Below, piece by piece: positions 7,598 to 29,083 of a DNA stretch of 32,000 nucleotides. This stretch comes from Sinorhizobium meliloti (GTDB lineage Bacteria > Pseudomonadota > Alphaproteobacteria > Rhizobiales > Rhizobiaceae), in assembly GCF_017876815.1 (NCBI RefSeq), contig NZ_JAGIOS010000002.1, positions 1,590,001 to 1,622,000 of the forward strand, in the 5' to 3' direction. Each line of letters opens with the position of its first letter. Within the stretch, counting starts at the first letter, position 1. Made by a program: the position numbers and the translations under genes. A model generated the notes under the pieces. The model was not told the origin of the DNA. It made no database searches and worked only from the letters and a program-made list of their open reading frames with translations.

Positions 7598-8769
7598 CGT
7601 CACCGATCCCGGCGCCCGGCGAGCCCCTTCCGCACTACGTTTCGACCGCGCCCTTCGACCCGTATTCCGTGGAGGTCATGACCGAGGAGCAGGTGCGGGT
7701 GAACCAGGCATCACAGCTGCGCCTGATGTGGTGGAAGTTCAAGCGCCACAAGGTCGCGCTCGCCTCGGGCATCTTCCTCGCGGTGCTCTACGGCATGATC
7801 CTGATCTGCGAGTTTCTCGCGCCCTACGACCTGCACACGCGCAATGTCGATTTCATCTATGCGCCGCCGCAGAGGATTCACTTTTTCCACGAGGGTGAAT
7901 TCGTCGGCCCCTTCGTCTACGGCCGGACGATGACGCTGGACATGGACACGCTGAAGCGCAACTACGCGGACGATACGTCGAAGGTCGAGCCGATCCGGTT
8001 CTTCTGCCGCGGCGACGACTACCGTTTTTGGGGTTTGTTCGAAAGCAATCTGCATCTGGTTTGCCCGGCGGAGGGAGGGCAGCTTTTCCTCCTGGGCACG
8101 GACCGTCTCGGCCGCGACGTGCTGTCGCGGATCATCTACGGCGCGCGGATATCGCTGACGATCGGACTTCTCGGCATCACCGTCAGCTTCGTTCTCGGCA
8201 TCGTCATCGGCGGGCTTGCCGGATATCATGGCGGGATCTTCGACCTTGTGGTCCAGAGACTGATCGAAGTCCTGCAGTCGATACCGAGCATTCCGCTCTG
8301 GCTTTCTCTGGCGGCGATCATGCCGGCGACATGGAGCCCGCTTCTCATCTATCTGGGTATAACGGTCATCCTAGGCCTTCTCGACTGGACCGGCCTTGCG
8401 CGCGCCGTGCGCTCGAAGCTGCTCGCGCTCAGGGAGGAAGACTATGTCCTTGCGGCGCAGCTGATGGGCGCCAGAAGCGGACGCATCATAGGGCGACACC
8501 TCGTTCCGGGCTTCATGTCCCATCTCATCGCAACGGCAACGATCTCCATACCCGGCATGATCCTCGGAGAAACGGCGTTGAGCTTCCTCGGCCTCGGCCT
8601 GCGCCCTCCGATAACCAGCTGGGGAATCCTGCTCACCGAGGCAAAGAGCGTCAGCGTCATTGCCTTCTATCCTTGGCTGCTTTTCCCCACGATCCCGGTC
8701 ATTCTTGTGATATTGGCGTTCAACTTCCTGGGAGACGGGTTGCGCGACGCCGCCGATCCCTACAAATAA
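7594..8769 (+). CDS. ABC importer permease (DppC/YejE-like) with a ~90-aa N-terminal extension
   Basis: The GTG at 7594 overlaps the previous stop (GTGA). Motifs seen: LGTDRLGRDVLSRIIYGARISL and EEDYVLAAQLMGARSGRIIGRHLVP. The upstream part of ORF 6901-8769 lies inside the preceding permease gene and is Arg/Pro-rich junk. Confidence 0.85.
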   Translation: MTSPIPAPGEPLPHYVSTAPFDPYSVEVMTEEQVRVNQASQLRLMWWKFKRHKVALASGIFLAVLYGMILICEFLAPYDLHTRNVDFIYAPPQRIHFFHEGEFVGPFVYGRTMTLDMDTLKRNYADDTSKVEPIRFFCRGDDYRFWGLFESNLHLVCPAEGGQLFLLGTDRLGRDVLSRIIYGARISLTIGLLGITVSFVLGIVIGGLAGYHGGIFDLVVQRLIEVLQSIPSIPLWLSLAAIMPATWSPLLIYLGITVILGLLDWTGLARAVRSKLLALREEDYVLAAQLMGARSGRIIGRHLVPGFMSHLIATATISIPGMILGETALSFLGLGLRPPITSWGILLTEAKSVSVIAFYPWLLFPTIPVILVILAFNFLGDGLRDAADPYK

Positions 8770-8848: not shown

Positions 8849-10063
8849 ATGACACGGCGCTTCGAGGATGCCCGCATCCTCATGTACAGCCACGATACCT
8901 TCGGGCTCGGCCATCTCAGACGTTGTCGCGCCATCGCCCATGCACTGGTGGAAGATTACAGCGGACTGCAGATCCTGATCATCTCCGGTGCGACCATCGC
9001 CGGCGCCTTCGATTATCGCGCGCGCGTCGACTTCGTGAAGATCCCGAGCGTCATAAAGCTCCGAAACGGCGAATATACCTCGCTGGACCGTCACATCGAG
9101 TTGCACGAGACCTTGAAAATGCGGCAGTCGATCATCCGTTCGACAGCGGAAACCTTCCGGCCGGATATTTTCGTCGTCGACAAGGAGCCGATGGGTCTGC
9201 GCGGCGAGGTAGAGGATACGCTCGCCTACCTGAAGACGCACGGCACCAGGCTGGTGCTTGGTCTGAGGGAAATCATGGACGCGCCGTACCTCCTTGAAGA
9301 GGAATGGAAGCGACGCGACACGATGCGCAAGATCGAGCAGTTCTACGATTCGATCTGGGTCTACGGACCGCCGGACTTCTACGATCCGCTGGTCGGGCTC
9401 GACGTGCCCGTTGCCGTGCGCGACCGCATGAACTTCGTCGGATTCCTGCAAAGAAGCGTTCCCAACGACGCACTGCCCGGCCATAAGCCGGAAGGCGACT
9501 ACATACTGGTCACCACCGGCGGCGGTGGTGACGGAGCGGACCTCATCCATGACGTGATCCACGCCTATCAGGAGGATCCCGAACTCACGCATAACGCGCT
9601 CGTCGTCCTCGGCCCCTACATGCCGGCAAAGCAGCGCAACAAGCTGATCAAGAAGGGAAGCAAGATCCCATTCATCAAGATAATCGAGTTCGACAATCGC
9701 ATGGAGGAACTGATAGCCGGCGCCAGGGGCGTGGTGTCGATGGGCGGCTACAACACCTATTGCGAGATACTCTCTTTCGACAAGCCCGCCCTGATCGTGC
9801 CGCGCCTTCAGCCACGCGAAGAACAATTGATCCGCGCCCAGCGTGCCTCGGCACTCGGGCTCGTCGACATGCTGCTTCCTCAGGAAGCGGAGGAGCCGTT
9901 GCGCCTTGCTGCGGCCCTGAAGGCGCTGCCGCAGCGCGCGCCTCCGTCGCTCCGCGCCAATGGCCTGAGGCTGGAAGGCCTCGTCCACATATCCGAGATC
10001 GTCGGCGAATGGCTCGATCATAGATCGAAAGAGCATTTGGCCGTCGTGAAAAGATCGAACTGA
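8849..10063 (+). CDS. GT-B fold glycosyltransferase (COG4671-like / GT28 C-terminal-domain type), paralog A
   Basis: N-terminal ILMYSHDTFGLGHLRRCRAIAHAL (GxGH nucleotide-sugar GT-B motif), mid TTGGGGDG, and C-terminal SMGGYNTYCEILSFDKPALIVP...REEQLIRA (MurG/GT1-like donor-binding region). A GAAAGG Shine-Dalgarno sits 8 nt upstream. Confidence 0.75.
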   Translation: MTRRFEDARILMYSHDTFGLGHLRRCRAIAHALVEDYSGLQILIISGATIAGAFDYRARVDFVKIPSVIKLRNGEYTSLDRHIELHETLKMRQSIIRSTAETFRPDIFVVDKEPMGLRGEVEDTLAYLKTHGTRLVLGLREIMDAPYLLEEEWKRRDTMRKIEQFYDSIWVYGPPDFYDPLVGLDVPVAVRDRMNFVGFLQRSVPNDALPGHKPEGDYILVTTGGGGDGADLIHDVIHAYQEDPELTHNALVVLGPYMPAKQRNKLIKKGSKIPFIKIIEFDNRMEELIAGARGVVSMGGYNTYCEILSFDKPALIVPRLQPREEQLIRAQRASALGLVDMLLPQEAEEPLRLAAALKALPQRAPPSLRANGLRLEGLVHISEIVGEWLDHRSKEHLAVVKRSN

Positions 10064-10069
10064 AGACAC

Positions 10070-11317
10070 GTGTCGCCGAAACCGAAGATCGCCGTCGTGC
10101 TGAAGGGTTATCCACGCCTTTCGGAAACGTTTATCGCGCAGGAACTGCTGGGCCTCGAAAGAGCAGGGCATGAGCTCGTCCTCGTCGCCCTGCGCCGTCC
10201 GACCGACAGGAAACGCCATCCCGTCCATGACGAAATACGCGCGGCCGTCCATTACCTGCCTGAATATCTGCATGAGGAGCCCTTGCGCGTTTTCCGAGCG
10301 CTGGTGAAGACCGTCCCGAAGCCCGGCTTCCGGCGGGTGCTCGGGTCGTTCCTCCGAGACCTCGCGCGCGACGTTTCACGCAACCGCTTCCGCCGTCTTG
10401 GTCAGGCGCTGGTGCTCGTCACCGAATGGCCGGAAGACGCCGCGTGGCTGCATGCCCACTTCATTCACACGCCGGCCTCGGTAACGGACTATGCCAGCAT
10501 AATCACCGGCATACCCTGGACCTGCTCTGCCCATGCAAAGGACATCTGGACCTCTAAGGATTGGGAGCTTTCGGGCAAGCTCGACCGGGCCCGCTGGACG
10601 GTGACCTGCACCCGAAGCGGCTATGAGCACCTGCGGGACCTGTCGAAGGACCAGACCCGGGTCCATCTGAGCTATCACGGCCTCGATCTCGATCGTTTCC
10701 CGGCCTTCGAAGGCGAGCATTCCCGGCGCGACGGCGCGGATCCCGACGATCCGGTGCGCATCGTCAGCGTCGGGCGCGCCGTTCCCAAGAAGGGATATGA
10801 CGTCCTCCTGAAGGCGCTGTCGTTGTTGCCTGCGGATATCAACTGGCGCTTCGAGCATATCGGTGCGGGAGAGCTCACCGGCGGGCTCCAGGCGCTTGCC
10901 GCAAAGCTTGGCATCGAGGATCGCATCCGCTGGCACGGGGCACTCGATCAGAAGGATGTTTTGGGCCGCTACCGTGGGGCCGACATCTTCGCACTGGCGT
11001 GCCGGGTGGCGGCCGATGGTGACCGCGACGGCCTGCCGAATGTGCTCGTGGAGGCGTCGAGCCAGCGGCTTGCCTGTATATCGACCGCAGTCTCCGGCAT
11101 TCCTGAACTTCTTGAAGATGGCAAAAACGGCCTGGTGGTGCCGCCGGAAAGCCCGGAGCCTCTTGCCGCGGCACTGGAGCGGCTGATCCGCGACCCGGAG
11201 CTCCGCCGGCGGCTTGGCGCCGCGGGGGAACGGCGCGTGCGCAGCGAGTTCGACCACCACTCCAGCGTCCGTCAGCTGGTCGGGCTCTTCGAAAGCGAAT
11301 GGAGAAGAAGTCCTTGA
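10070..11317 (+). CDS. GT4-family (group 1, WcaL-like) glycosyltransferase
   Basis: GTG start. KIAVVLKGYPRLSETFIAQELLGLERAGHE is a WcaL-type N-terminus. The C-terminal GRAVPKKGYDVLLKAL...GLPNVLVEASSQRLACISTAVSGIPELLEDGKNGLVVPP carries the E-x7-E region. Confidence 0.85.
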   Translation: MSPKPKIAVVLKGYPRLSETFIAQELLGLERAGHELVLVALRRPTDRKRHPVHDEIRAAVHYLPEYLHEEPLRVFRALVKTVPKPGFRRVLGSFLRDLARDVSRNRFRRLGQALVLVTEWPEDAAWLHAHFIHTPASVTDYASIITGIPWTCSAHAKDIWTSKDWELSGKLDRARWTVTCTRSGYEHLRDLSKDQTRVHLSYHGLDLDRFPAFEGEHSRRDGADPDDPVRIVSVGRAVPKKGYDVLLKALSLLPADINWRFEHIGAGELTGGLQALAAKLGIEDRIRWHGALDQKDVLGRYRGADIFALACRVAADGDRDGLPNVLVEASSQRLACISTAVSGIPELLEDGKNGLVVPPESPEPLAAALERLIRDPELRRRLGAAGERRVRSEFDHHSSVRQLVGLFESEWRRSP

Positions 11318-12501
11318 GCAGGCCTCGCGTCTTTTTCTATGTGCAGCATCTTCTCGGTATCGGGCATCTGGCGCGCGCGAGCCGCATTGCCGGAGCGCTG
11401 GTCGAGCGGGATTTCGAGGTCACGATGGTGACCGGCGGCACGCCGGTGCCGGGCTTTCCGGGGGAAGGTGTGCAGACCGTCGCACTGCCGACGGTGACTG
11501 CCGGCGACAAGGGGTTTTCCGGGCTTGTCGACGGCGACGGAAACCCGGTCACGGCCGCTTTTCAGGAGCACCGACGGGATCTGCTCGTCGAGGCGTTCCG
11601 CCGCACGGAACCGGAGGTCGTCATCATCGAGGCCTTCCCCTTCGGGCGTCGGCAGATGCGGTTCGAACTGCTGCCGCTGCTCGCTGAAATTGCGGCGAGC
11701 AGCCGGCCGCCGCTCGTGACGACGTCGCTGCGCGACATTCTGCAGGAGAGGGTCAAGCCCGGGAGGGCCGAGGAGACTGTCGAACTCGTCAAGAACCATT
11801 TCGACCTCGTACTCGTTCACGGTGACCCCGGATTCGCCCGTATCGAGGAGACATTTCCCCTTGCCGACGAAGTCCGCGACAAGGTCGTCTATACGGGCCT
11901 CGTCGCCCCGCCGCCGCCAAATGAGGCGGCGGAGAAGTTCGACATCGTCGTTTCGGCGGGCGGAGGCGCGGTCGGCAGGGAGCTGATCGGCGCGGCGCTC
12001 GAGGCCGCGAAGCTTCTGCCGAATGCACTTCGCTGGTGTCTGATAACCGGCCCGAACCTGCCGCAGGCGGATTTCGACACATTCGCGGCCGCGGCTCCAG
12101 AGGGCGTCAGCCTCTTTCGTTTCCGGCGGGATTTCGGTGGCTTGCTCGGCGGTGCCCGCCTTTCCGTCTCGCAGGCCGGCTACAACACCGTGTGCGACAT
12201 TCTGCGTGCCGGATGCGCGTGCCTCCTCATCCCCTTTACCGCGGGTGGCGAGACCGAACAGAGCACGCGGGCGGCACGGCTCGAACAGCTCGATCTCGCC
12301 GGCGTGCTGCCGGAGGAGGGGATCACGCCTGAGCTTCTGGCCGCGAAGGTGAGCTTCATGCTTGCCCGGCCAAGACCGGCCATCCCGCCGCTCGACCTCG
12401 ACGGAGCCGCCGGGACGGCGAGGATCATCGGCGAGCGGCTTTCGTCGAGACAGTCCTTTCCTCACCCAGCTCCAGGTCTTAGACCGACCCGATCAGCATG
12501 A
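11299..12501 (+). CDS. GT-B fold glycosyltransferase (COG4671-like), paralog B
   Basis: VFFYVQHLLGIGHLARASRIAGAL, SAGGGAVG and SQAGYNTVCDILRAGCACLLIPF...ETEQSTRA align motif-for-motif with the protein at 8849-10063. It overlaps the GT4 gene by 19 nt. Confidence 0.75.
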   Translation: MEKKSLSRPRVFFYVQHLLGIGHLARASRIAGALVERDFEVTMVTGGTPVPGFPGEGVQTVALPTVTAGDKGFSGLVDGDGNPVTAAFQEHRRDLLVEAFRRTEPEVVIIEAFPFGRRQMRFELLPLLAEIAASSRPPLVTTSLRDILQERVKPGRAEETVELVKNHFDLVLVHGDPGFARIEETFPLADEVRDKVVYTGLVAPPPPNEAAEKFDIVVSAGGGAVGRELIGAALEAAKLLPNALRWCLITGPNLPQADFDTFAAAAPEGVSLFRFRRDFGGLLGGARLSVSQAGYNTVCDILRAGCACLLIPFTAGGETEQSTRAARLEQLDLAGVLPEEGITPELLAAKVSFMLARPRPAIPPLDLDGAAGTARIIGERLSSRQSFPHPAPGLRPTRSA

Positions 12502-13153
12502 AGCGCGTGTATCTTTTTGTCGGCAGCGCTCCCGCGAAGTCGATCCGCGCGAGACGCGCCTGCGCTTGAAATTCTTCAAGCGACCTGACGCAGCTTATGT
12601 GGGTGGGTTCGCTGAAATAATCGTTCGATTGCAGGAGGACGCGCGTGCCGGGCGAAAGCAGGTCCAGCCAGTTCCGCAGTTCGCCGATGTGTTCGCAGCT
12701 CGTGTTGATCAGCAGATCCGCATTCAGGGCGCGATAGTCGAGCGTGTGCATATCGGCCGTCATCGCATGGAATCTGTCGCCGAAGGCTGCGTTGAGCGTG
12801 CGCGCCACCGGCTCAACCGCGGGATCGATGTCACAACTCACGGCGAATTCGATGTCGAAGCGCGAATCTTCGAGCAGCATGGCCGACAGAACGCCGTACC
12901 AGCCGCCGAGCACGATGATCCGACGACAGTCTGCGCCGATGCTCTCGAAGAGCTTGTCGCGGGCCCACATCTTGCAGTCGACCTGCTTGTGGTTGAAGGC
13001 ATTGGCAATGTTGGCTTGCGGATGCTTCGCGATGACCCTGGCTATGCCGCCGACGAGCCTGCTGCCGGAATAGGCAGCCAGCCCCCGGGCAAGGTCATGG
13101 GCGTTTTCGCGCCAATCTTCGAGAAGGCGGGGAGAGTGGCTGGCATGCGTCAT
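12479..13153 (-). CDS. Class I SAM-dependent methyltransferase-like protein
   Basis: Rossmann MTase motif order: IIVLGGWYGVLS (motif I), AVSCDIDP (acidic post-I), MTADMHTLDY, DLLINTSCEHI. It reads far more protein-like than the overlapping plus-strand ORF 12362-13234. It is convergent with GT paralog B and overlaps it by 23 nt. Confidence 0.6.
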   Translation of the reverse strand: MTHASHSPRLLEDWRENAHDLARGLAAYSGSRLVGGIARVIAKHPQANIANAFNHKQVDCKMWARDKLFESIGADCRRIIVLGGWYGVLSAMLLEDSRFDIEFAVSCDIDPAVEPVARTLNAAFGDRFHAMTADMHTLDYRALNADLLINTSCEHIGELRNWLDLLSPGTRVLLQSNDYFSEPTHISCVRSLEEFQAQARLARIDFAGALPTKRYTRFMLIGSV

Positions 13154-13263
13154 GCGGCTGTTGTAAGCTCACGGTCAAGTGAGCGCAAGGCGCCGGAGGT
13201 GGGCCGCAGGAGTGGAGGCAAGAGGCCTGCGTAGATGAGGCGGTACTGCATATCAGTCGGAGG

Positions 13264-13293
13264 CTTGACATGGCGCATCGCTCTGCTCTCATG
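13264..13293 (+). promoter_or_regulatory. Candidate promoter for the ABC exporter gene (CTTGAC-N18-CTCATG)
   Basis: The -35 matches the rhizobial CTTGAC consensus exactly. The -10 matches CTATAT at 4 of 6 positions. It lies in the divergent region between the minus-strand methyltransferase and the exporter. Confidence 0.25.
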
Positions 13294-13428
13294 CCGGGTA
13301 GTCACGATTTCGTGGAGGTAGCGCAGGCCCATTGACGATCAGGCGGACCGGCACCAAGTGCGGCGCTGTAGTCCGCCGGCAGAACAGCCGTGCGATCCCG
13401 AATTTCAGATAGGTCTCTTTACCGGCAC

Positions 13429-16140
13429 ATGGAACCACGTCTTTCCCGCTACATCTGGACTCACACCCGCAAGCAGCAACTCTGGATATTGCTGGTCGTG
13501 GCGCTGTCGATGGTTCCCTATTTCCTGTCCTTCGATCTGCCGAAGCAGATCGTCAACGGACCGATTCAGGGTGCAGGTTTCGACGGCCCCGAGGCGACCC
13601 AACCGTTCCTGCCGATTTCCTTCGACCTGCCGTTCTTCGGTGAGGTCAACCTCTTCTCGGGTTTCGATCTCGGCAGGGAAGGCATGCTGCTGGCCTTGAG
13701 TCTGGTGTTCCTGCTGCTCGTGATCATCAACGGGCTCTTCAAGTTCTATATCAATACCTACAAGGGCCGGCTCGGCGAGCGGCTTCTGCGGCGAATCCGC
13801 TTCGAGCTCGTCGACCGGGTCTTGCGCTTCCCCCCCGGCTATCTCAAGCGCGTGAAGCCGGCCGAAATCTCGACCATGATCAAGGACGAGGTGGAGCCGA
13901 TGGGCGGCTTCACCGGAGACGCCTTCGTGCAGCCCGCCCTTCTCGGTGGGCAGGCGCTGACGGCGCTGATCTTCATCCTCCTCCAGAGCTTCTGGTTGGG
14001 TATCATCGCAGCCTCGATCGTCGCCGTTCAGGCGGTCATTATCCCGCGCATGCGCAGGCGACTGCTGGTGCTCGGCCGCGAGCGTCAGTTGACGGCGCGT
14101 GAGCTGTCGGGCCGCGTCAGCGAGATCGTCGACGGCATCGGCACGATCCGCGCCCACGATACCTCCAATTTCGAGCGGGCCGACATTGCCGCGCGGCTCG
14201 GCCGGATATTCAAGATCCGCTACGACCTCTATCAGTGGAAGTTTCTGGTCAAGTTCCTGAACAACTTCCTGGCCCAGGTGACGCCGTTCCTGTTCTATTC
14301 GATCGGCGGATATTTTGCGCTTCAGGGCCGGCTCGACATCGGCCAGCTTGTCGCGGTCATCGGCGCCTACAAGGATCTTCCGGGCCCCTTGAAGGAATTG
14401 ATCGATTGGGACCAGGCGCGCCAGGATGTGCAGGTCAAATATGCCCAGGTTGTCGAACAGTTCAGCGTCGAACCTCTGATCGACCCCAAGGTGCAGGCAA
14501 TCTCCGTCGACCCGGCAACGCCGCTGACGGGAGCGCTGGCTGCCGTCAACCTTTCGGTGGCCGACGACGGTGGCTCGAAAGTCGTGGAGCATGTCTCGCT
14601 GCAGATCCAGCCCGGCGAGACGGTCGCGATTACCGGCGGCACGTCCGGGGGTGGCGAGGCGCTGGCCGAGGCTTTCGGCCGGCTGACCTGGCCCGCAACC
14701 GGCCGGATCGTCATAGGCGACGCCGATATACACGATTTGCCCGAATCGGTGGTGGGCAGGCGAATATCCTACGCCTCCTCCGACGTCTTCGCCTTCCAGG
14801 GCAGCCTCGGCGACAATCTGCTCTACGGGCTCAAGCATGCTCCGTTGACCGAGGTCGTCTATGAGGGCGACAGGGAAGCCCACCGCAGGTGGGAGCTTGT
14901 GGAGGCCAAGCTCGCCGGCAATCCGCATTACGATCTGAACAGCGACTGGATCGATTATCAGGCCGCGGGCGCGACCGGGCCGGACGACCTCTTCGCGAAG
15001 ATCAGGGCCGTGCTGGACGTCGTTCTGTTGAGCAATGACGTCCTGGCTCTTGCTGTCCGCTCGACCATCCATCCGACCGAGCACGTGGCTTTCGCCGGCG
15101 AGATCGTGGCGATGCGCAGCGCGCTTCGCCAGCGGCTCGAGGCCGAGAAGCTCAGCGATCTCGTCGTCTTCTTCGAACCGGGCTCCTACAATGTCGAGGC
15201 AACGGTCGGGGAGAACCTGCTCTTCGGCACGGTCACCGACAGCAACCGCTGGGAGACGGCGCTCGAGAACCATCCTTTCTTCAAGACCGTTTTAAAGCGG
15301 GCAGGCCTGCACGAGACCTTCTACGAGATGGGGCTCGAAATCGCCGAGAACGTCGTGGAACTGTTCCGCGACTTGCCGCCCGACCACCCGTTCTTCCAGC
15401 AGCTCACCTTCATGACGGCCGAGGAAATCCCTGCCTACGAAGCGCTTCTTCAGAAGGTAAGGGGAAAGCCGCTCGAGGAGGTGTCCGAGGATGATGCCAT
15501 CAGGATCATCCGCCTTTGCTTCGGCTATATCGAGCCGCGGCATCGTTTCGGTCTCCTGACGGACGAGCTCATGCAGAAGATCGTCGAGGCGCGGCGGGAG
15601 TTCAGCGACGGCCTCCCGGCCGATCTCGTCGGCATCATCGAGCATTACCAACCGGACCGCTACATGGCCTCGGCGACAATCCTGGACAACGTGCTCTTCG
15701 GCCGCATCGGGCACAAGCACACGGATGGCTCCGAGCGGATACGTGCGATCGTGCGCGATCTGTTCGAGTCGCTCGGGCTCTATAACAAGGTGCTCGTGTT
15801 CGGGCTGGATTTCGACGTCGGCGCCGGCGGCAAGCGGTTGACGTCCGGCCAGCGCCAGAAGCTCAATCTGGCGCGTGCCCTGATCCGGGTCTCGGATTTC
15901 TACGTGTTCAACCAGCCGCTTCTGGCGCTCGACCAGCGCACGCAGGACCAGATCACCCGCAAAGCCTTCGCCTTCTTGCGGGACGGCGAGCGCAAGCCCG
16001 CCATATTGTGGGTCCTTGCCAACCAGGACCTGGCGGAACTCTTCGACCGCGTCGCGCATTTCGAAAACGGGCGGTTGGCGCGCGACGAACCGGTGGAAAC
16101 GCATGCAAGAGACAGCGACTACAAGGAACTGGCATCTTGA
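13429..16140 (+). CDS. Fused TMD-NBD ABC exporter-type protein (type I exporter fold) with degenerate, expanded NBD
   Basis: N-terminal ABC_membrane-like six-helix region (LWILLVVALSMVPYFLSF, MLLALSLVFLLLVIINGLF, LTALIFILLQSFWLGIIAASIVAV and others). NBD motifs are present but substituted: P-loop GGTSGGGEA, signature LTSGQRQKL, Walker B FYVFNQPLLALD, H-loop VLANQ. The ATG at 13429 is preferred; an in-frame GTG at 13390 is possible. Confidence 0.8.
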   Translation: MEPRLSRYIWTHTRKQQLWILLVVALSMVPYFLSFDLPKQIVNGPIQGAGFDGPEATQPFLPISFDLPFFGEVNLFSGFDLGREGMLLALSLVFLLLVIINGLFKFYINTYKGRLGERLLRRIRFELVDRVLRFPPGYLKRVKPAEISTMIKDEVEPMGGFTGDAFVQPALLGGQALTALIFILLQSFWLGIIAASIVAVQAVIIPRMRRRLLVLGRERQLTARELSGRVSEIVDGIGTIRAHDTSNFERADIAARLGRIFKIRYDLYQWKFLVKFLNNFLAQVTPFLFYSIGGYFALQGRLDIGQLVAVIGAYKDLPGPLKELIDWDQARQDVQVKYAQVVEQFSVEPLIDPKVQAISVDPATPLTGALAAVNLSVADDGGSKVVEHVSLQIQPGETVAITGGTSGGGEALAEAFGRLTWPATGRIVIGDADIHDLPESVVGRRISYASSDVFAFQGSLGDNLLYGLKHAPLTEVVYEGDREAHRRWELVEAKLAGNPHYDLNSDWIDYQAAGATGPDDLFAKIRAVLDVVLLSNDVLALAVRSTIHPTEHVAFAGEIVAMRSALRQRLEAEKLSDLVVFFEPGSYNVEATVGENLLFGTVTDSNRWETALENHPFFKTVLKRAGLHETFYEMGLEIAENVVELFRDLPPDHPFFQQLTFMTAEEIPAYEALLQKVRGKPLEEVSEDDAIRIIRLCFGYIEPRHRFGLLTDELMQKIVEARREFSDGLPADLVGIIEHYQPDRYMASATILDNVLFGRIGHKHTDGSERIRAIVRDLFESLGLYNKVLVFGLDFDVGAGGKRLTSGQRQKLNLARALIRVSDFYVFNQPLLALDQRTQDQITRKAFAFLRDGERKPAILWVLANQDLAELFDRVAHFENGRLARDEPVETHARDSDYKELAS

Positions 16141-16236
16141 TGTAATATTGTTGTCAGGAGGCAAGCATATGTTCCCGCCGGCACGGGATAGGACCTGTTT
16201 GCACCAACCGCGACGCATTCGGAGAACCGGACTGTT

Positions 16237-16701
16237 ATGCTCCTAAAAGATGAAGTGGAAATGCTGCGCCGGATAACGCTGTTTTCCGGACTTCCGCCTG
16301 CCAAGCTCAAGCTTCTGGCTTTCACCTCCGACCGGGTGATGTACAGCATGGGAGAAGATCTGTTTCATCAGGGGGATATCGGCGACGCGGCCTATGTGAT
16401 CCTTTCGGGTAATGCGGATGTGCTCGTTTCGACGCCGAACGGACAGCTGAAAGTCGCCGAAGTGGAGCAGAATTCGATCGTCGGCGAGATCGCCATCCTC
16501 TGCAACACGCCGCGTACGGCAACGGTCAAGACGACCACCCCACTCGAAGCTCTGCGGATCCGGAAGGATGATTTCCTCAAACTGTTGGCTGATTTCCCGG
16601 AGATGGCAGTCGAGATCATGCGGGTGCTGGCCGACCGCCTCAGCCAGACGACTTCCGAGTTGACGGAGGCGCGCAGCCGCGCCCAGAGGGCAGAGGCCTG
16701 A
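16237..16701 (+). CDS. Stand-alone cyclic-nucleotide-binding (CAP/PKA-type cNMP) domain protein, no output domain
   Basis: FSGLPPAKLKLLA...FHQGDIGDAAYVILSGNADVL...IVGEIAILCNTPRTATVKTTTPLEALRI is a textbook CNB beta-barrel with a phosphate-binding cassette (GE...R[TS]A). At 154 aa there is no room for an HTH or other effector domain. Confidence 0.85.
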   Translation: MLLKDEVEMLRRITLFSGLPPAKLKLLAFTSDRVMYSMGEDLFHQGDIGDAAYVILSGNADVLVSTPNGQLKVAEVEQNSIVGEIAILCNTPRTATVKTTTPLEALRIRKDDFLKLLADFPEMAVEIMRVLADRLSQTTSELTEARSRAQRAEA

Positions 16702-16735
16702 GCCTCGTTCACCCGTTTCCCCCTCCGCGACGTCC

Positions 16736-16775
16736 CCGGAAAAACCGGTTTCCACTTCGCTTGAAAATGCTCTAG
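16736..16775 (+). repeat. Short rhizobial-type intergenic element ending in GCTCTAG (copy 1)
   Basis: CCGGAAAAACCGGTTTCCACTTCGCTTGAAAATGCTCTAG lies between the cNMP-binding and FkbM genes. It shares a CCGG..AACCG..CACTT..GCTCTAG skeleton with the reverse complement of 29480-29518. Confidence 0.35.
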
Positions 16776-16784
16776 AGAAGCGCG

Positions 16785-17534
16785 ATGCGCGCGATAACCT
16801 ATTTCCAGAGAACCGTTTATTTCCCAGACAAGCCGGAAAAGGCGCGCTTCTTCAGCCGGTTGCAGTCCGGCCAGTGGGAGCCCGGTACTTTTCGCAACAT
16901 CGCGCGCTTCGTCGACGGCAAAACGACCTATATCGACATTGGCGGCTGGATCGGGGTCACGCCCTACTGGGCGGCACAGGCTGCCGATAATGTCATTGTC
17001 GTCGAACCTGATCCGGTCTGTTTCGGCATTCTCACCGAAATGAAAGGCGCAAACACCGGGGAAGTGAAACTCGTCAATGCGGCCCTTTCGCAAGACGAAC
17101 GTCTCGTTCTCAATTCCGTGGGCGGCGGCTTCGGGAGTTCGGAAACGTCGGCGCTGATCGCCGACGACACCGGCATGACGATCGAGGCCAAGACGATCAC
17201 AATTCCCGAGCTTCAGGCGATGGCGAGGACCGAACGTCTCTGCCTCAAGATCGATATCGAAGGCTACGAATACAAGGTTCTCGACCAGTTTCGGGCGATC
17301 GACCGGAAGAGGACCGCCGGCGTGCTGCTCGCGGTGCACCCGCAGATCCTGGCCGCTTCGCTCTCCGGGCCTGCCGTTCTGCGCGTAATCAGGACTGCGT
17401 CGGCAACCTTCCGCCTGATACGAAGCCTGCGTGGCTTTCGATTGGAGAACCCGTCGGCGCTCTGGGGAGCGATCCGCAAATCGGTTTCCAAAGGCGAGAT
17501 CAGGGGCTTCGACCTGCTCTTCGTTGCGCGTTGA
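16785..17534 (+). CDS. FkbM-family methyltransferase
   Basis: YIDIGGWIGVTPYWAAQAADNVIVVEPDP (SAM motif I/post-I) and CLKIDIEGYEYKVL (the FkbM IDIEGxE signature). Confidence 0.8.
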   Translation: MRAITYFQRTVYFPDKPEKARFFSRLQSGQWEPGTFRNIARFVDGKTTYIDIGGWIGVTPYWAAQAADNVIVVEPDPVCFGILTEMKGANTGEVKLVNAALSQDERLVLNSVGGGFGSSETSALIADDTGMTIEAKTITIPELQAMARTERLCLKIDIEGYEYKVLDQFRAIDRKRTAGVLLAVHPQILAASLSGPAVLRVIRTASATFRLIRSLRGFRLENPSALWGAIRKSVSKGEIRGFDLLFVAR

Positions 17535-17609
17535 GGACAACGCCCGGGTACGCTTCATCCACAGGTGAGCGATCTCTGCGGCCAGTTATTAGGTTCGACT
17601 CAAAAAAGA

Positions 17610-17637
17610 TTCGACAGGCACGATCGGCTGATATATC
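17610..17637 (+). promoter_or_regulatory. Candidate sigma-70-type promoter of the LacI-regulated operon (TTCGAC-N16-TATATC)
   Basis: Read directly from the sequence. TTCGAC also occurs as a direct repeat 12 nt upstream (17594-17599). Confidence 0.3.
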
Positions 17638-17642
17638 GCAGC

Positions 17643-17654
17643 TTAATCGTTTAA
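17643..17654. promoter_or_regulatory. Candidate LacI-family operator (CG-centred palindrome TTAATCGTTTAA)
   Basis: Five of six half-site pairs are complementary around a central CG, the usual LacI/PurR operator geometry. It lies 28 nt upstream of the regulator start and just downstream of a candidate -10. Confidence 0.35.
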
Positions 17655-17681
17655 TCATCCGATGCGGCGGAAGATAAGGCC

Positions 17682-18752
17682 TTGGCACGTTCCGGACCCA
17701 AACTGACGAGGATAGCCACGGCACTTGGCGTCTCCGCGGCGACGGTCTCCAACGCGCTCTCCGGCAAAGGGCGCGTCTCCGCCGAGCTTGCCGAGAAAAT
17801 CCGCTCGGTTGCGGCCGAGATCGGATATGTTCCGAGCCAGGCGGGAAGGGCGCTCAGGACCGGCAAGAGCGCGGTCATCGGGCTGGTTCTGCCTGACATC
17901 AGCAATCCGCTCTTTCCCCAGATCGCACAGGCGATCGAGTTTGCGGCATCTTCTGCCGGTTACGGCGTGCTGATCGCAGACTCCCGCGGCGACGTCGCCG
18001 TCCAGACGAGGGCGATCGAACGCCTCATCGAGCGGGGCGTCGACGGCATGGTCATCGTGCCGCGGCGGGGAACCCGCATTGCCGATGTCGGTTGCCCGGT
18101 CGCTGTGGTGGACACGCCCTCGACACCCGGCAACACGGTGGCGGCGGACCATTGGGACGGCGGAAGGCAGATCGCCGAGCATCTCGTCGGACTCGGTCAC
18201 AGGCGCTTGCTGATCCTAGGCAACAATCCCGCCTCCAACGTGCAGAACGACCGGATCGGCGGGCTTCGCTCGGCCATGCGCGAAGGCGCGCAGGCGGAGA
18301 CGCTGTGGATCGAACGGCTGGAGCAGGTACACGGCAAGGGCTGCTCGCTCGGGCTCGCCGGGAAGGTGGCGGAAGGCGTGACGGCCTTTGCGGCCGTCTC
18401 CGACCTGCAGGCGCTGCGCGCGCTCACGGAACTGCAACGGGCCGGCATCCATGTCCCGGAACAGGCGAGCGTCACCGGGTTCGACGACCTGATCTGGTCA
18501 CCGGTGGTGACGCCGGCGCTGACCACGATTCGGATGGATATGGCGCGCATCGCGACGCTCGCGGTCGAGGCGCTGGTGCAGGCGATCGGCGCCGGCGAAG
18601 CCGAATTTCCATCCCACGGCACGCCCGTTGCCGCCACCATTTCGAAAGTGCCCATGCAACTCGTCGTCCGCCAGTCCACGGCGACGCCACCATCAAACGT
18701 GCAGCCAGCCCCCAACGTAAAGCCACCCAGCGAAGGAGAACCGCAGTCATGA
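17682..18752 (+). CDS. LacI/PurR-family transcriptional regulator
   Basis: N-terminal HTH LTRIATALGVSAATVSNALSGKGRVSAELAEKIRSVAAEIGYVPSQAGRALRTGKS, followed by a periplasmic-binding-protein-like core. TTG start. The stop overlaps the next ATG (ATGA at 18749-18752). Confidence 0.85.
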   Translation: MARSGPKLTRIATALGVSAATVSNALSGKGRVSAELAEKIRSVAAEIGYVPSQAGRALRTGKSAVIGLVLPDISNPLFPQIAQAIEFAASSAGYGVLIADSRGDVAVQTRAIERLIERGVDGMVIVPRRGTRIADVGCPVAVVDTPSTPGNTVAADHWDGGRQIAEHLVGLGHRRLLILGNNPASNVQNDRIGGLRSAMREGAQAETLWIERLEQVHGKGCSLGLAGKVAEGVTAFAAVSDLQALRALTELQRAGIHVPEQASVTGFDDLIWSPVVTPALTTIRMDMARIATLAVEALVQAIGAGEAEFPSHGTPVAATISKVPMQLVVRQSTATPPSNVQPAPNVKPPSEGEPQS

Positions 18753-19771
18753 AGAAAATCCTCATCGCCTCGACCGCGCTCCTCTTGATCGGCGCCCATG
18801 GCGCATCCGCTCAGGAGAAGACCCTGACCATCTCCGTCTACGGCTTCGCCCAGGACGCGTTCAAGGAGCTGGTCTATGATTCATTCGAAGCCAAGTGCGG
18901 CTGCAAGCTCGTCGTCGAAACGGGCAACAGCGTCGAACGCCTTGCCAAGATGGAGGCAAACAAGGCCAATCCGGTCGTGGACATGGCGGTGGTTTCCATG
19001 GCGGACGCGCTTTCCGCTACAAGGGCCGGCCTGATCGACAAGATCGATACTTCGAAGCTCAGCAATTTCGACAAGCTCTACGACATCGCCAAGGACCCGA
19101 ACGGCGACGGCATGAGCATCGGCTACACTTTCTACGCCACCTCGATCGTCTATCGTTCCGACAAGGTGGAAGTCACGTCCTGGGCCGATCTACTCGGCGA
19201 CAAGCTAGCCGGCCATGTGGCTCTCCCGAACGTCACGACCAACCAGGGTCCGCCGACGCTCTACATGATCGGTGAAGCGCTCGGCCAGAATACGCCGGAC
19301 CTCAAGGCCGCGATCGCCGCAGTCGGCGAAAAGAAGGACGATATCGTCACCTTCTACGTCAAATCCTCGCAGCTCGTGCAGTTAATGCAGCAGGAAGAAA
19401 TCTGGGCGGCGCCGATCGGCCGGTTCTCCTGGGAAGGTTTCACCAAGATGGATCTGCCGATCAAGTGGGCGACCCCGAAGGAGGGCCAGACCGGCGGCAT
19501 GAACGTCATGGTTCTGGCCAAGGGCTCGAAGAACCAGGATCTCGCGCTTCAGTTCATGGACTTCTGGTTGTCGACGGAAATCCAGACGGCGCTCGCCGAA
19601 AAGCTGGTCGACAGCCCCGCCAACAAGGAAGTGAAGGTCTCGCCGGAGATCGCCGAGAACCTCACCTACGGCGAAGAAACGGTCAAGAACCTGAAGCTCA
19701 TCCCGTCGGCAGTGGCACTCGACAATCGGGAAGCGTGGCTTTCCGAGTGGAACGCCAAGGTCGGCCAGTAA
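18749..19771 (+). CDS. PotD/PotF-type (spermidine/putrescine-family fold) ABC substrate-binding protein
   Basis: Signal peptide MKKILIASTALLLIGAHGASAQ. Size (~340 aa) and sequence style fit the PotD-like SBP family. The upstream part of ORF 18092-19771 lies inside the LacI gene and was rejected. Confidence 0.85.
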   Translation: MKKILIASTALLLIGAHGASAQEKTLTISVYGFAQDAFKELVYDSFEAKCGCKLVVETGNSVERLAKMEANKANPVVDMAVVSMADALSATRAGLIDKIDTSKLSNFDKLYDIAKDPNGDGMSIGYTFYATSIVYRSDKVEVTSWADLLGDKLAGHVALPNVTTNQGPPTLYMIGEALGQNTPDLKAAIAAVGEKKDDIVTFYVKSSQLVQLMQQEEIWAAPIGRFSWEGFTKMDLPIKWATPKEGQTGGMNVMVLAKGSKNQDLALQFMDFWLSTEIQTALAEKLVDSPANKEVKVSPEIAENLTYGEETVKNLKLIPSAVALDNREAWLSEWNAKVGQ

Positions 19772-19859
19772 GAGCCTGGCTCTTGCCTTGCGCGACGCCA
19801 GATCCTGCCGGCGTCGCGCCACGTATCCAACGGCGGCACTGCCGCGGAAAGGCGTAGAG

Positions 19860-20687
19860 ATGTTCCACAACCGGGCCGAGGCGCTGGCACTTGCCTTGCC
19901 GGCGGCCGTGTTCGCCGCCGTCGTCTTTCTGGCGCCGGTTGTCATCCTGCTTGCCGAAGGCTTCCGCAATGTCGATGGCTGGTCGGTATCCGCCTATACC
20001 GGGTTCCTATCCGATCCGCTCAACCGGACGGTGTTCCTGCGCACGCTGCGGCTCGGCGCGGCGGTAACCGTGGTCGCTGCCGTCATCGGCTATGCCGCTG
20101 CCTTCGCCATCGTCAACCTGCCGCCGAAAGGCAAGGGCCGGATGATCGGCCTCGTGGTGCTGCCGCTGATGATATCGCCGGTTGCGCGCACCTATGCGTG
20201 GATCGTCATTCTGGGGAGGACCGGGATCGTCAACCAGGCATTGACGAGCGTCGGCCTGACCGACGAGCCGGTGCGCTTCCTGTTCACGGAGACGGCGGTC
20301 TTCGTCGGGCTCCTGCAGCTCTTTCTGCCGCTGATGATCCTGGCTCTGATCAGTGCGCTCGAAAACATGCCGAAGGACGCGATCCCCGCAGCGCGGGTAC
20401 TCGGCGCCAATTGGTTTCAGGTCTTCTGGAAGGTCATTTTGCCGCTCACCAGGGAAGGTCTTGTGATCGGCGGAACGCTCGTCTTCACCGGCTCCCTGAC
20501 AGCCTATATCACCCCGGCGATCCTCGGGGGCTCCAAGGTCCTGATGCTGGAAACGCTTCTTTATCAGCGTGTGACCGTCGCCAATGATTTCGTCTCCGCA
20601 AGCGTCATCGCCTTCATCCTGATCGTCATGAGCTTCGCGGCCAATCTTCTCTTGAAGCGGCTCGCGACCGCGAGGAGCAAGCGATGA
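19860..20687 (+). CDS. ABC importer permease (PotB-like)
   Basis: The ATG at 19860 is preceded by GGAAAGG. The protein is a multi-TM protein with the EAA-type loop LENMPKDAIPAARVLGANWFQVFWKVILPL. Confidence 0.85.
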   Translation: MFHNRAEALALALPAAVFAAVVFLAPVVILLAEGFRNVDGWSVSAYTGFLSDPLNRTVFLRTLRLGAAVTVVAAVIGYAAAFAIVNLPPKGKGRMIGLVVLPLMISPVARTYAWIVILGRTGIVNQALTSVGLTDEPVRFLFTETAVFVGLLQLFLPLMILALISALENMPKDAIPAARVLGANWFQVFWKVILPLTREGLVIGGTLVFTGSLTAYITPAILGGSKVLMLETLLYQRVTVANDFVSASVIAFILIVMSFAANLLLKRLATARSKR

Positions 20688-21463
20688 ATTCCCGTCTTTT
20701 CCCCGTAACGGTGCTCGTACTCGTCACCGCGTTCCTGATCGGCCCCTTCTTCATCATCGTCGCGGCATCCCTGTCGGGGGGCGAGACGCTTGCCTTTCCG
20801 CCGCAAGGCCTTTCGCTGAAATGGGTCGCAAAGGTCTTCGAGGTCGAGAGCTTCCGCGAGAGCTTCGCCATGTCGATGCTGCTTGCCATCGGCGGGACGG
20901 CTGCCGCCCTTGCCCTCGGCATCCCGGCATCCTACGCGCTTTCGCGTTACCGGCTGCCCTTCGGCGAAACGGTCCGCACCGTCGTCTCCCTGCCGATCAT
21001 CGTGCCCGGCATCATCGTCGGCCTGGCGCTGCTACGCTATCTCGTCGTTCCCTTCGGGTTCAATATCACGCTGGCGCTCTTCCTTGCACACACGGCGCTC
21101 GTGTTGCCCTATGCGGTGCGCGTCGTCTCGGCGAGCCTCAACAATCTGCGCTCCGATATCGAGGAGGCCGCGGTGCTGCTCGGCTCGTCACGCGCCGGCG
21201 CCTTTTTCCGGGTGGTCATGCCGAACATCCGCAGCGGCATTCTCGCCGCCTTCATTCTCGGCTTCGTCACCAGCTTCAATCAGGTGCCGGTTTCGTTGTT
21301 CCTGTCCGGCCCGGGCGTGCGCACGCTGCCGATCGACATGCTCTCCTACATGGAGATCACCTATGACCCGTCGGTCGCGGCCCTGTCGGCGCTGCTCGCC
21401 TTCATGTCCATCGGCATCGTCTTCCTCGCCGAGCGTTTTCTAGGATTTTCCCGCTATGTCTGA
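20684..21463 (+). CDS. ABC importer permease (PotC-like)
   Basis: ATGA overlap with the preceding gene. EAA loop LRSDIEEAAVLLGSSRAGAFFRVVMPNI. Confidence 0.85.
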   Translation: MNSRLFPVTVLVLVTAFLIGPFFIIVAASLSGGETLAFPPQGLSLKWVAKVFEVESFRESFAMSMLLAIGGTAAALALGIPASYALSRYRLPFGETVRTVVSLPIIVPGIIVGLALLRYLVVPFGFNITLALFLAHTALVLPYAVRVVSASLNNLRSDIEEAAVLLGSSRAGAFFRVVMPNIRSGILAAFILGFVTSFNQVPVSLFLSGPGVRTLPIDMLSYMEITYDPSVAALSALLAFMSIGIVFLAERFLGFSRYV

Positions 21464-22484: not shown

Positions 22485-22490
22485 TCCGCA

Positions 22491-25192: not shown

Positions 25193-25198
25193 CGCTCT

Positions 25199-26368: not shown

Positions 26369-26519
26369 CGGCAGGCATTCCTTGAGCAGTCTGGAAAGAG
26401 CCTGAATTCCCCAGCTTTGGTTGCTGGGACGTGCCCTTTCGGTTTGATCGAAGCGGCAATGGGTATAGACGAAAAACTTAGGGATCAGAACCTTTTACTA
26501 AGTCGAATGGACGCCAGGC

Positions 26520-27230: not shown

Positions 27231-27510
27231 CATCGCCGGCGCCCGAAGGAATGCCCCCGGAATTCGCTGGAAAACTTGAAAGTCTTTCGCGCTCGGCGTC
27301 GAAATCGGTGGCTAGCGGTCATGCGCGCGAAAACGCACAATCGGGTGCTTGCGATGGCGACCCATCCGGCGAGGCCGCACGGCCTGGATCATACACCCTG
27401 AAGGTATCGGGGCGCGCGATCAAATTGCAATGGCCGGGCTCTTGGAGGAGCAACACACCCGGTCTCTGTCGTTCGGCTGCGTCGAGATGACGTCTGCCAA
27501 GGGAGGAAAA

Positions 27511-28803: not shown

Positions 28804-28810
28804 CCGAACA

Positions 28811-28850
28811 GGGTTGGGGAGGGTCGCGACCGGCGCGGCCCCTCCAACCC
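28811..28850 (+). terminator. GC-rich hairpin just after the permease stop (possible terminator, weak T-tract)
   Basis: GGGTTGGGGAGGG ... CCCCTCCAACCC are imperfect inverted arms (about 11 bp with a small bulge) starting 8 nt after the TGA. It is followed only by a short CTCTTT run. Confidence 0.4.
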
Positions 28851-28966
28851 GCCACGCTCTTTGGCAAGCCGACGAACCTCTGGCGTTCTTGCCGGCCCAA
28901 AGACATACTCCTCGACTTCGCGGCGCTTGCGGGACAGCGTTGGACTTGAGTAACCCATCGTGATAG

Positions 28967-29083
28967 GTTACTAGCGCGGTCTGGGCTGATGGCATGAAGC
29001 GGGGCGATGTGCGCCGGGCGGTGCAGATCGTCAACGAACGGCAACAGCAATTCCTCGGCAGATGGAGGGAGATTCATGGCTGA
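28967..29083 (+). pseudogene. C-terminal remnant of a DUF4160-like gene
   Basis: The frame opens after the TAG at 28964-28966 and reads ...GMKRGDVRRAVQIVNERQQQFLGRWREIHG*. This resembles the C-terminal helix of DUF4160 proteins, which normally sit directly upstream of DUF2442 genes. No N-terminal half was found. It overlaps the next ATG by 8 nt. Confidence 0.4.

Follow-up and report, generated by a model that had tools for sequence, protein, structure and literature searches.

How could a protein with the fold of an ATP-binding cassette (ABC) exporter work if its catalytic residues have been replaced throughout? ABC exporters are defined by the ATP-driven dimerization of their nucleotide-binding domains (NBDs), and degenerate sites have been accepted only where a consensus site remains. 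The question is raised by a stretch of 32,000 nucleotides of Sinorhizobium meliloti DNA (assembly GCF_017876815.1, contig NZ_JAGIOS010000002.1, positions 1,590,001 to 1,622,000 of the forward strand), here called the window, which contains the orthologue of SMb21269, a gene located on pSymB of S. meliloti 1021. The gene has so far been listed as a putative exporter, to which the present analysis adds, as new features, a family-wide loss of the catalytic motifs in its NBD, a triplicated module inserted into this domain and an invariable partnership with a cyclic-nucleotide-binding (CNB) domain. Neither the degenerate NBD nor the insert nor the CNB link of SMb21269 was found described in the literature, where only two papers on a proposed polysaccharide and one on the transporter HetC surfaced. 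As judged from the sequences, a non-hydrolytic role of the protein appears to be the most economical reading.

The longest open reading frame (ORF) of the gene extends from position 13390 to 16140 on the forward strand, starts with GTG and encodes 916 residues, whose numbering is used throughout. Because close homologues are all 903 residues long and begin with MEPRLSRY, the likely start is M14, encoded by the ATG at 13429, which results in a protein of equal length. Window positions are converted into pSymB positions by adding 828295, which puts the stop codon of the window gene at the end of SMb21269 (842345-844435). The window shares 100% identity with NZ_CP021795 and 99.6% with the sequence of Rm1021 (NC_003078).

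The assignment to the ABC exporters is supported by profile searches and by structure prediction. Residues 100-324 match the Pfam family ABC_membrane (PF00664) with 71 bits (cut-off 28, E 1.7e-19), which identifies a transmembrane domain (TMD) of the type-IV exporter class, and homology to NBDs is evident in a match to ABC_tran (PF00005) with 39.5 bits (cut-off 25), which covers only residues 400-492 and positions 2-80 of the 137 positions of the profile. The C-terminal half of the NBD is instead recognized by NCBIfam models at residues 753-903, and the exporter models of this collection (MsbA, CydD/C, NHLM and NdvA-type) align in two separate stretches comprising residues ~92-492 and ~753-903. 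All equivalog scores remain far below their curated cut-offs (146 vs 602 bits for MsbA, 120 vs 853 for NHLM ABC1 and 94 vs 733 for the NdvA-type model). A full-length AlphaFold2 (AF2) model built on 69 sequences shows a pLDDT of 86.5, exceeding 90 across most of the NBD and the insert, and a pTM of 0.81. Its top Foldseek matches are TmrAB, TM287/288, MsbA, PCAT1 and ABCB1, with target-normalised TM-scores of ~0.6 for TmrAB, TM287/288 and MsbA. The TMD is the most conserved region of the protein, with 77-81% identity between genera compared to 53-62% for the insert. Between TM1 and TM2, the periplasmic loop of the model contains a small beta element of four strands (window ~13600-13671, residues ~71-94), which is unusual for MsbA-type exporters.

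Half-transporters for glycans and glycolipids, such as the cyclic beta-glucan exporter NdvA/ChvA, MsbA and PglK, share the architecture of SMb21269 and its polysaccharide context, and they account for its best NCBIfam matches (MsbA and the NdvA-type model), with NdvA also being found among its PDB matches. Unlike SMb21269, these proteins carry canonical ATPase motifs and have neither an insert nor a CNB partner.

The departure from a functional ATPase is manifested in the motifs of the NBD, whose register was fixed by a residue-by-residue HMMER alignment to ABCB4 and by an alignment of 69 family sequences. In the remnant of the Walker A motif (G416-GTSG-G421-G422-E423, nt 14635-14658, part of GGTSGGGEA at residues 416-424, nt 14635-14661), the lysine of the consensus GxxxxGK[ST] is replaced by G422 and the adjacent serine or threonine by E423. 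The Walker B peptide FYVFNQPLLALD (nt 15898-15933) contains the remnant FYVFNQ, where, compared to the consensus hhhhDE, the aspartate has become N841 and the catalytic glutamate Q842. In addition, the glutamine of the Q-loop is replaced by S464, the histidine of the H-loop by A877 (within VLANQ, nt 16012-16026) and the aromatic residue of the A-loop by V390. Only two elements of the window protein are near-canonical, namely the signature LTSGQ (within LTSGQRQKL, nt 15838-15864), which keeps the leucine, the hydroxyl residue, one glycine and the glutamine, and the D-loop, which is retained as LALD. By sequence comparison, seven nucleotide-contacting positions are thus lost in the NBD of the window protein.

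An initial annotation, made from the sequence of the window alone, had already described the NBD as degenerate at all catalytic positions, which is borne out by both alignments, and its reading of the Walker B motif (D to N, E to Q) was correct. For the other two motifs the described loss is real, but the register was off by one residue, since the Walker A motif had been read as K to E and S/T to A and the H-loop as H to N (N878), while the replacements in the Q-loop and the A-loop had not been listed. The peptides quoted in it are encoded at the nucleotides where it placed them, except for the third of three segments of the ENLLFG type, which is present at nt 15634-15702, 6 nt upstream of its estimate; the other two are located at nt 14764-14829 and 15163-15228. 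With the corrected register, the conclusion of the initial annotation stands and is strengthened.

The same degeneration is found throughout the family. When six positions (the Walker A lysine and serine/threonine, the Q-loop glutamine, the Walker B aspartate, the catalytic glutamate and the H-loop histidine) are scored in 69 diverse members, 32 of them keep no canonical residue, 20 keep one, 13 keep two, a single member keeps three and three members keep four, which is the maximum. Two of the latter, P0145 and P0184, retain the sequence GKS. Since both already contain the insert and the CNB partner, the sequences suggest that insert and CNB linkage arose before the motifs were completely lost.

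We have considered whether the protein could still act as ATP-dependent exporter that hydrolyses ATP slowly by means of non-canonical residues, with an acidic residue at the serine/threonine position and the Walker B asparagine coordinating a metal ion or water, and with the CNB domain merely tuning the rate. Such activity would be compatible with the glycine-rich P-loop, where G416 is kept in 51/69 and G421 in 53/69 members, with the non-random nature of the substitutions (a glutamate or aspartate at the serine/threonine position in 39 and an asparagine at the Walker B aspartate in 36 of the 69 members) and with the retention of the D-loop and most of the signature in the window protein. It would also be in line with HetC, a CNB-bearing ABC exporter whose catalytic glutamate is essential (PMC10986499). 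Against it stands the concerted loss of six independent nucleotide-contacting positions, including the A-loop aromatic residue and the Walker A lysine, which is a glycine or alanine in 32/69 members. The signature, too, is affected on the level of the family, as its first glycine is found in only 5/69 and its second in 11/69 members. Already the mutation of a single one of the residues K, D, E or H abolishes or cripples ATP hydrolysis in ABC proteins, and we thus regard residual ATPase activity as quite improbable.

The described features are not confined to few strains. With the insert alone (residues 486-748) as query, a search among 1.8 billion representatives yielded 767 clusters (50% identity) at an E-value of 1e-3 or lower, 484 of them at 1e-10 or lower, and full-length members of the family range from 820 to 1206 residues. 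A scan that used an eight-sequence alignment and took a single genome for each GTDB species detected relatives in at least 568 genomes. The best 80 of these belong to the Rhizobiaceae, Phyllobacteriaceae, Brucella, Agrobacterium and Rhodobacterales. All members with a taxonomic assignment are alphaproteobacterial, including a distant member from Thalassospira, in which the CNB domain is fused to the ABC protein. Sequences of ~450-570 residues, which had been considered as stand-alone NBD proteins, were dropped because their N-termini resemble fragments at contig ends.

This distribution also bears on the possibility of a pseudogene in decay or a strain-specific artefact. In its favour, a poly-C tract within the gene (window 13830-13836, forward strand) causes frameshifts in two assemblies. 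In the window, the tract comprises seven cytosines (C7) and is in frame, and the same length is found in seven other S. meliloti strains (Rm2011, SM11, BL225C, GR4, Rm41, ml46 and RU11/001), each with an intact ORF. The Rm1021 reference instead contains C8, and because of the resulting frameshift SMb21269 is annotated in a truncated form starting at M221, whereas RCAM1115 contains C6 and no coding sequence is listed there. The ratio of nonsynonymous to synonymous substitution rates (dN/dS) is 0.02-0.04 compared to S. medicae in all regions, including the dead halves of the NBD and both extra repeats, and 0.07-0.14 compared to S. fredii, with an overall span of 0.02-0.15; in the more distant comparisons it is lowest in the TMD. 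Together with the same architecture in the mentioned species genomes and a phenotype upon transposon insertion (PMC10128002), these data refute the pseudogene reading, to which we give next to no credence. The substitutions do not reflect strain-specific decay, and from its conservation, the gene is functional and under strong purifying selection.

The second distinctive feature of the protein concerns the distance between the Walker A motif and the signature, which amounts to 401 residues compared to about 100 in ABCB4, close to the ~400 residues reported in the initial annotation. Because the match to ABC_tran ends at residue 492 and the NCBIfam matches are split, we consider the ~280 extra residues (~481-760) to be real. 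For their characterization, the family alignment was cut into three segments termed R1, R2 and R3 (Table 1), whose profiles were compared with hhalign. The three segments are related to each other, with probabilities of 99.2% for R2 vs R3 (E 9e-20, 83 columns), 96.6% for R1 vs R3 (E 6e-10, 71 columns) and 93.7% for R1 vs R2 (E 2e-7, 70 columns), while controls with TM segments and other parts of the NBD as well as reversed and 60 column-shuffled profiles all scored at or below 18 with E ≥ 0.02. The repeat unit reads "...LP..l...I.f..p..Y...a[ST]l.[ED]N[LI]LFG", followed by a variable linker and "..vL...GL...v...GL". R1, which directly adjoins the Walker A half of the NBD, consists of a strand, the Q-loop position, the sequence GDNLLYG, a family-specific loop of ~50 residues and helices that include IRAVLDVVLLSNDVLALAV. 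R2 begins with a helix followed by a strand, VGENLLFG, two helices and a helical extension of ~75 residues (DLPPDHPFF...IEPRHRF), and it includes some of the best-conserved residues across the family, with N609, G613, R576 and R719 occupying invariant columns. In R3, a leading helix and a strand precede ILDNVLFG and the helices of the helical subdomain, after which the chain enters the signature. R3 is the copy that is aligned by canonical NBD profiles, starting at residues 753-761 (NCBIfam PhnC, LolD, PstB and CydC). In the Pfam profile, positions ~62-80 align to R1 and in relatives also to R3, and the repeat unit thus represents the strand and Q-loop together with the helices that open the helical subdomain. 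At the level of profiles, the similarity is far beyond chance and points to a tandem triplication of this segment.

A triplicated helical subdomain had been proposed in the initial annotation, and whereas the proposal is supported by the profile comparison, it finds no counterpart in direct tests of the middle copy. An AF2 model of isolated R2 shows a pLDDT of 87, and this model yields no Foldseek match at E ≤ 0.001. Similarly, a profile of 36 R2 sequences retrieves nothing relevant from the PDB sequences with hmmsearch (best E 0.12), and a Pfam scan of the same 36 sequences detects neither ABC_tran nor any other convincing family match. The homology of R2 to NBDs consequently rests on the chain of hhalign relationships from R2 to R3 and from there to canonical domains.

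The third feature is found directly downstream of the ABC gene, where the small protein SMb21270 is encoded (Table 1). This protein contains a single cNMP_binding domain (PF00027, residues 35-118, 73.5 bits, cut-off 27.5), no helix-turn-helix (HTH) motif is detected in it by Pfam, and NCBIfam models of the CRP type score far below their cut-offs. Its phosphate-binding cassette GEIAILCNTPRTAT (nt 16483-16524) shows the G-E-x-A...R-[ST]-A pattern and aligns to GEIALLLNRPRAAT of the RI subunit of protein kinase A (PKA), with the CNB domains of PKA regulatory subunits being the nearest relatives of known structure (E 2e-21). On this basis, SMb21270 contains a bona fide CNB domain, which we predict to bind cAMP or cGMP. 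Its annotations as 'Crp/Fnr family transcriptional regulator' and 'cAMP-dependent protein kinase' are rejected, as there is neither an HTH nor a kinase domain.

The association of the two proteins is close to invariant. In 86 loci (80 from genomes and 6 from metagenomes), a CNB ORF follows on the same strand at a distance of 7-190 bp 3' of the ABC gene in 85 cases and is fused to it in the remaining one, and the cassette (GEIAILC..RTAT) is intact in 85/86 loci. Stand-alone CNB proteins of the family comprise 150-180 residues. By eye, a C-terminal CNB fusion is recognized in 14 representatives exceeding 1000 residues, and Pfam confirms it in the five of these that were scanned (P0153, P0184, P0198, P0234 and P0245, with E between 1e-14 and 1e-22). 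The linkage is also kept in two loci, L004 and L006, where the glycosyltransferase neighbourhood of the window is absent, and it is thus tied to the ABC protein and not to the gene cluster. In P0234 and P0245, the C-terminal CNB domain is followed by a GGDEF domain (Pfam E 4e-4 and 3e-8), which suggests cross-talk between cyclic nucleotide monophosphates (cNMPs) and cyclic di-GMP (c-di-GMP) in part of the family. Directly upstream of the fused member of the Thalassospira type, L004 encodes a protein with metallo-beta-lactamase fold (5192-5971) that matches Anti-Pycsar_Apyc1, a family of cyclic-mononucleotide phosphodiesterases, and this Apyc1-like protein may act as local cNMP-degrading enzyme.

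The lack of an equivalent second subunit is relevant for the question whether SMb21269 constitutes the degenerate half of a heterodimer, whose consensus partner would be encoded elsewhere and would contribute its Walker A and B motifs to form one active site with LTSGQ. Heterodimers with one degenerate site are common (PMC12038006), and the signature and D-loop are the best-kept motifs of the window protein. The heterodimers TM287/288, TmrAB, LmrCD, PatAB and MsRv1273c/72c share the fold of SMb21269, as they are among its best Foldseek and phmmer matches, and they likewise contain non-canonical residues at the Walker B glutamate, the H-loop or the signature. However, these exporters keep one consensus site and their halves are encoded by adjacent genes (TM287/288, TmrAB, LmrCD, PatAB, Rv1273c/72c), whereas in SMb21269 all catalytic positions are substituted, a triplicated insert of ~280 residues is present and no gene for an ABC partner is located nearby. 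A second ABC-exporter TMD is found neither in the window nor within ±10 kb in 85 loci, which extends the observation in the initial annotation that no partner half-transporter is encoded in the vicinity. Since the signature itself is degenerate on the level of the family and the CNB domain is the sole partner that is universally co-inherited, we consider a distant consensus half to be highly improbable.

Systems in which an ABC exporter is physically linked to a CNB domain have precedent in HetC and in the NHLM/PCAT transporters (TIGR03796/03797 with TIGR03896). SMb21270 matches TIGR03896 with E 1e-12 and SMb21269 matches TIGR03796 with E 6e-35, both below the respective cut-off. HetC does not function without its CNB domain (PMC10986499). 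This protein combines an N-terminal CNB domain with a C39 peptidase, depends on its catalytic glutamate and binds ppGpp but not cAMP. In contrast, the CNB domain of the SMb21269 system is C-terminal or separate and has a canonical cassette, the NBD is dead and a peptidase domain is missing, as Pfam detects neither a C39 peptidase nor an N-terminal CNB domain in SMb21269.

The genomic context connects the pair to glycan synthesis. In the conserved core of the cluster, an Opp-type importer is followed by a GT28-like, a GT4 and a second GT28-like glycosyltransferase, sometimes by a methyltransferase dependent on S-adenosylmethionine (SAM), and then by the ABC and the CNB gene, with the upstream glycosyltransferases being conserved in 75-77/86 loci. 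In S. meliloti, the cluster comprises SMb21258-SMb21271. Travin et al. observed a strong loss of fitness in presence of phazolicin upon insertion into SMb21252, redA/SMb21264, redB/SMb21265, SMb21266, SMb21259, SMb21269 and SMb21271 and have proposed an uncharacterised "phazolicin-protecting polysaccharide" (PPP) (PMC10128002); in the supplement of this transposon-sequencing (Tn-seq) study SMb21269 is labelled "PPP-biosynthesis; ABC exporter". The log2 fold changes of SMb21269 under phazolicin of -4.8, -5.4 and -4.0 are on par with those of the glycosyltransferases of the cluster (PMC10128002, Dataset S1), and the chromosomal adenylate cyclase gene cyaA is likewise depleted in the screen (PMC10128002). 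The genes of the cluster are moreover induced during predation by Myxococcus (PMC10315480).

A transcriptional route of cAMP control via the regulator Clr was rejected, as the polysaccharide genes that Zou et al. report to be regulated by Clr are those of the adjacent nodP2-smb21248 cluster and not SMb21258-21271 (PMC5498481), and a paper on the structure of Clr contains nothing on these genes.

It is conceivable that SMb21269 does not transport at all but serves as sensor or scaffold, in which the exporter fold and the CNB domain couple the sensing of cNMPs to the activity or assembly of the glycosyltransferases, or of the Opp-type importer and the lyase encoded in the cluster, while the glycan leaves the cell by another way. 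Such a role would agree with a dead motor and an invariable CNB linkage, with the conservation of the pair in L004 and L006 outside a glycosyltransferase neighbourhood and with the extra GGDEF domain of some members, which is typical of signalling proteins. ABC proteins of the SUR type offer a precedent for regulators. It is less readily reconciled with the TMD, whose strong conservation and lowest dN/dS in distant comparisons are better explained by a substrate path than by an anchor, with a Tn-seq phenotype that equals that of the glycosyltransferases and with the conserved core of the cluster, where no other exporter gene was seen. We hold a non-transporting protein to be unlikely, as the TMD, being the best conserved region, speaks for a genuine path of translocation and less for a mere scaffold.

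When combining these observations, we lean slightly towards a model where SMb21269 is a homodimeric protein of the exporter fold that participates in glycan export under the control of cyclic nucleotides and does not hydrolyse ATP. In this homodimer, the NBD-like domains would no longer work as ATPase motor but as dimerization and regulatory module. The CNB domain, loaded with cAMP or cGMP, would physically engage the ABC protein and set the open or closed state of the NBD dimer in place of ATP, and this state would in turn set the gate in the TMD. The TMD would then pass a glycan or a lipid-linked intermediate made by the neighbouring GT28-like, GT4 and GT28-like enzymes, with synthesis or a concentration gradient, and not ATP hydrolysis, providing the presumed driving force. 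The C-terminal position of the CNB domain in the fusions parallels that of the regulatory domains in the importers MalK and MetN. The initial annotation had suggested a scaffold, a gated channel or a regulated facilitator, and while our data favour its non-hydrolytic part, it had missed the CNB partner, which narrows the proposal to a hypothesis of cyclic-nucleotide control. A more specific version, in which cNMP binding replaces ATP binding and hydrolysis in the switching of the NBD dimer, such that the protein would form a cAMP- or cGMP-gated, ATP-independent glycan conduit with the extra copies of the Q-loop and helical subdomain as platform for docking of the CNB domain and transmission, is put forward tentatively, and we would at present rather doubt it.

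Several points weigh against the favoured model of a non-hydrolytic, cyclic-nucleotide-controlled homodimer. Going by sequence alone, the protein could still bind ATP, and as three members keep four of the six scored residues, including the GKS of P0145 and P0184, some lineages may still bind nucleotide. The near-intact signature and D-loop would equally fit a pairing with a consensus partner. The AF2 model is that of a monomer and as such silent on dimerization and CNB docking, and R2 on its own is, as modelled, without structural match to the NBDs of ABC proteins. The substrate PPP has never received a chemical definition. On the genetic side, the Rm1021 reference carries the C8 frameshift in SMb21269 and the Tn-seq phenotype of this gene could be due to polar effects on SMb21271. 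Finally, SMb21270 is absent from the listed Tn-seq hits, which in case of such a short gene is weak evidence (PMC10128002).

The model can be related to other systems by analogy. In CFTR and SUR1/SUR2 (ABCC7/8/9), the exporter fold serves gating or regulatory purposes instead of active pumping, one site is degenerate and CFTR is under control of the cAMP pathway. The likeness to SMb21269 is restricted to the working mode and does not imply membership, as the lineages are unrelated. CFTR and the SUR proteins bind ATP at both sites and hydrolyse it at one, and in CFTR cAMP acts indirectly via phosphorylation of the R domain by PKA, whereas in case of SMb21269 the CNB domain is directly attached and no consensus site is left. 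A second analogy concerns BcsA-PilZ, Alg44 and PelD, where a c-di-GMP receptor attached to the machine licenses the output of a polymer post-translationally, and where the receptor in PelD is a degenerate enzyme domain. Here, the messenger (c-di-GMP instead of cAMP or cGMP) and the folds of the receptors differ, and the systems are synthase-dependent and not of the ABC fold.

The features of the window are compiled in Table 1.

Table 1. Position of the ABC gene, its domains and repeats and the neighbouring genes in the window. Residue numbers refer to the 916-residue ORF.
Feature	Position	Strand	Basis
ABC-exporter-fold gene SMb21269	13429-16140	+	ORF list, homologue starts, pSymB mapping, AF2, Foldseek
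Transmembrane domain, residues 14-375, six long helices and small beta-hairpin element between TM1 and TM2	13429-14514	+	Pfam ABC_membrane, DSSP of AF2 model
NBD, N-terminal half, residues 376-480, with V390 (A-loop), Walker A remnant and S464 (Q-loop)	14515-14829	+	Pfam ABC_tran, ABCB4 and family alignments
Repeat R1, residues 428-565	14671-15084	+	hhalign and controls
Repeat R2, residues 566-720	15085-15549	+	hhalign, invariant columns, isolated AF2 model
Repeat R3, residues 721-835, running into signature LTSGQ (nt 15838-15852)	15550-15894	+	NCBIfam, hhalign
NBD core, C-terminal part, with Walker B remnant FYVFNQ (nt 15898-15915), D-loop LALD and H-loop position A877 (nt 16018-16020)	15895-16098	+	ABCB4 and family alignments
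Stand-alone CNB-domain protein SMb21270 (UniProt Q92VD3), 154 residues	16237-16701	+	Pfam cNMP_binding
FkbM-family methyltransferase SMb21271, 3' of CNB gene	16785-17534	+	TIGR01444, 90 bits; Tn-seq hit
SAM-dependent methyltransferase-like gene, divergent from ABC gene	12479-13153	-	CP050561 annotation; 31/86 loci
GT28-like redA/SMb21264	8849-10063	+	Pfam
GT4 redB/SMb21265	10070-11317	+	Pfam
GT28-like SMb21266	11299-12501	+	Pfam
Opp-type importer: double-NBD ATPase; substrate-binding protein (SBP_bac_5); two permeases	2807-4699; 4696-6597; 6599-8769	+	Pfam; ~60/86 loci
Polysaccharide lyase (PF14099) SMb21259	1518-2498	+	Pfam; Tn-seq hit
Class III cyclase-like ORF	172-1521	+	Weak Pfam match, E 1.5e-5

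Within the cluster, the GT4 and the second GT28-like gene overlap by 19 nt (11299-11317), and the methyltransferase gene on the minus strand overlaps with the 3' end of the latter by 23 nt (12479-12501). No terminator-like site is located between the ABC, CNB and FkbM genes, and a scan of positions 13100-17750 detected neither sigma-70 promoters nor intrinsic terminators. Genes for the lyase and for the cyclase-like protein often occur next to the conserved core. The cyclase-like ORF hints at a local source of cNMPs, and in about 14/86 loci a gene with at least 57% identity to it is encoded no more than 10 kb away from the ABC and CNB genes. Both this neighbour and the depletion of cyaA under phazolicin speak for a link of the system to cAMP. 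In view of the lyase and the importer, the exported glycan may be cleaved and its fragments taken up again. The region further downstream (17682-31940) encodes a LacI-type regulator, an ABC importer of the sugar/nucleoside type and enzymes of purine catabolism (nucleoside hydrolase, adenine deaminase and allantoicase), and appears to be unrelated.

For the databases, our results imply two corrections, as the annotation of SMb21269 in Rm1021 is N-terminally truncated and SMb21270 is neither a Crp/Fnr transcription factor nor a kinase. R2 moreover defines an uncharacterised module of ~155 residues that was not matched by any Pfam model. For the family, the described proteins constitute a widespread and strongly conserved clade that has lost catalytic residues throughout and is most simply homodimeric, and the S. 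meliloti gene nonetheless appears to be needed for tolerance of phazolicin, by way of the PPP. S. meliloti encodes many adenylate and guanylate cyclases, about 26 in number, and to our knowledge few non-transcriptional effectors of cNMPs have been described in this organism. The coupling to a PKA-like CNB domain thus offers a concrete hypothesis that is genetically testable in S. meliloti. If true, the exporter fold could be driven or gated without ATP hydrolysis, and there would be a direct post-translational route from cAMP or cGMP to the export of envelope polysaccharides.

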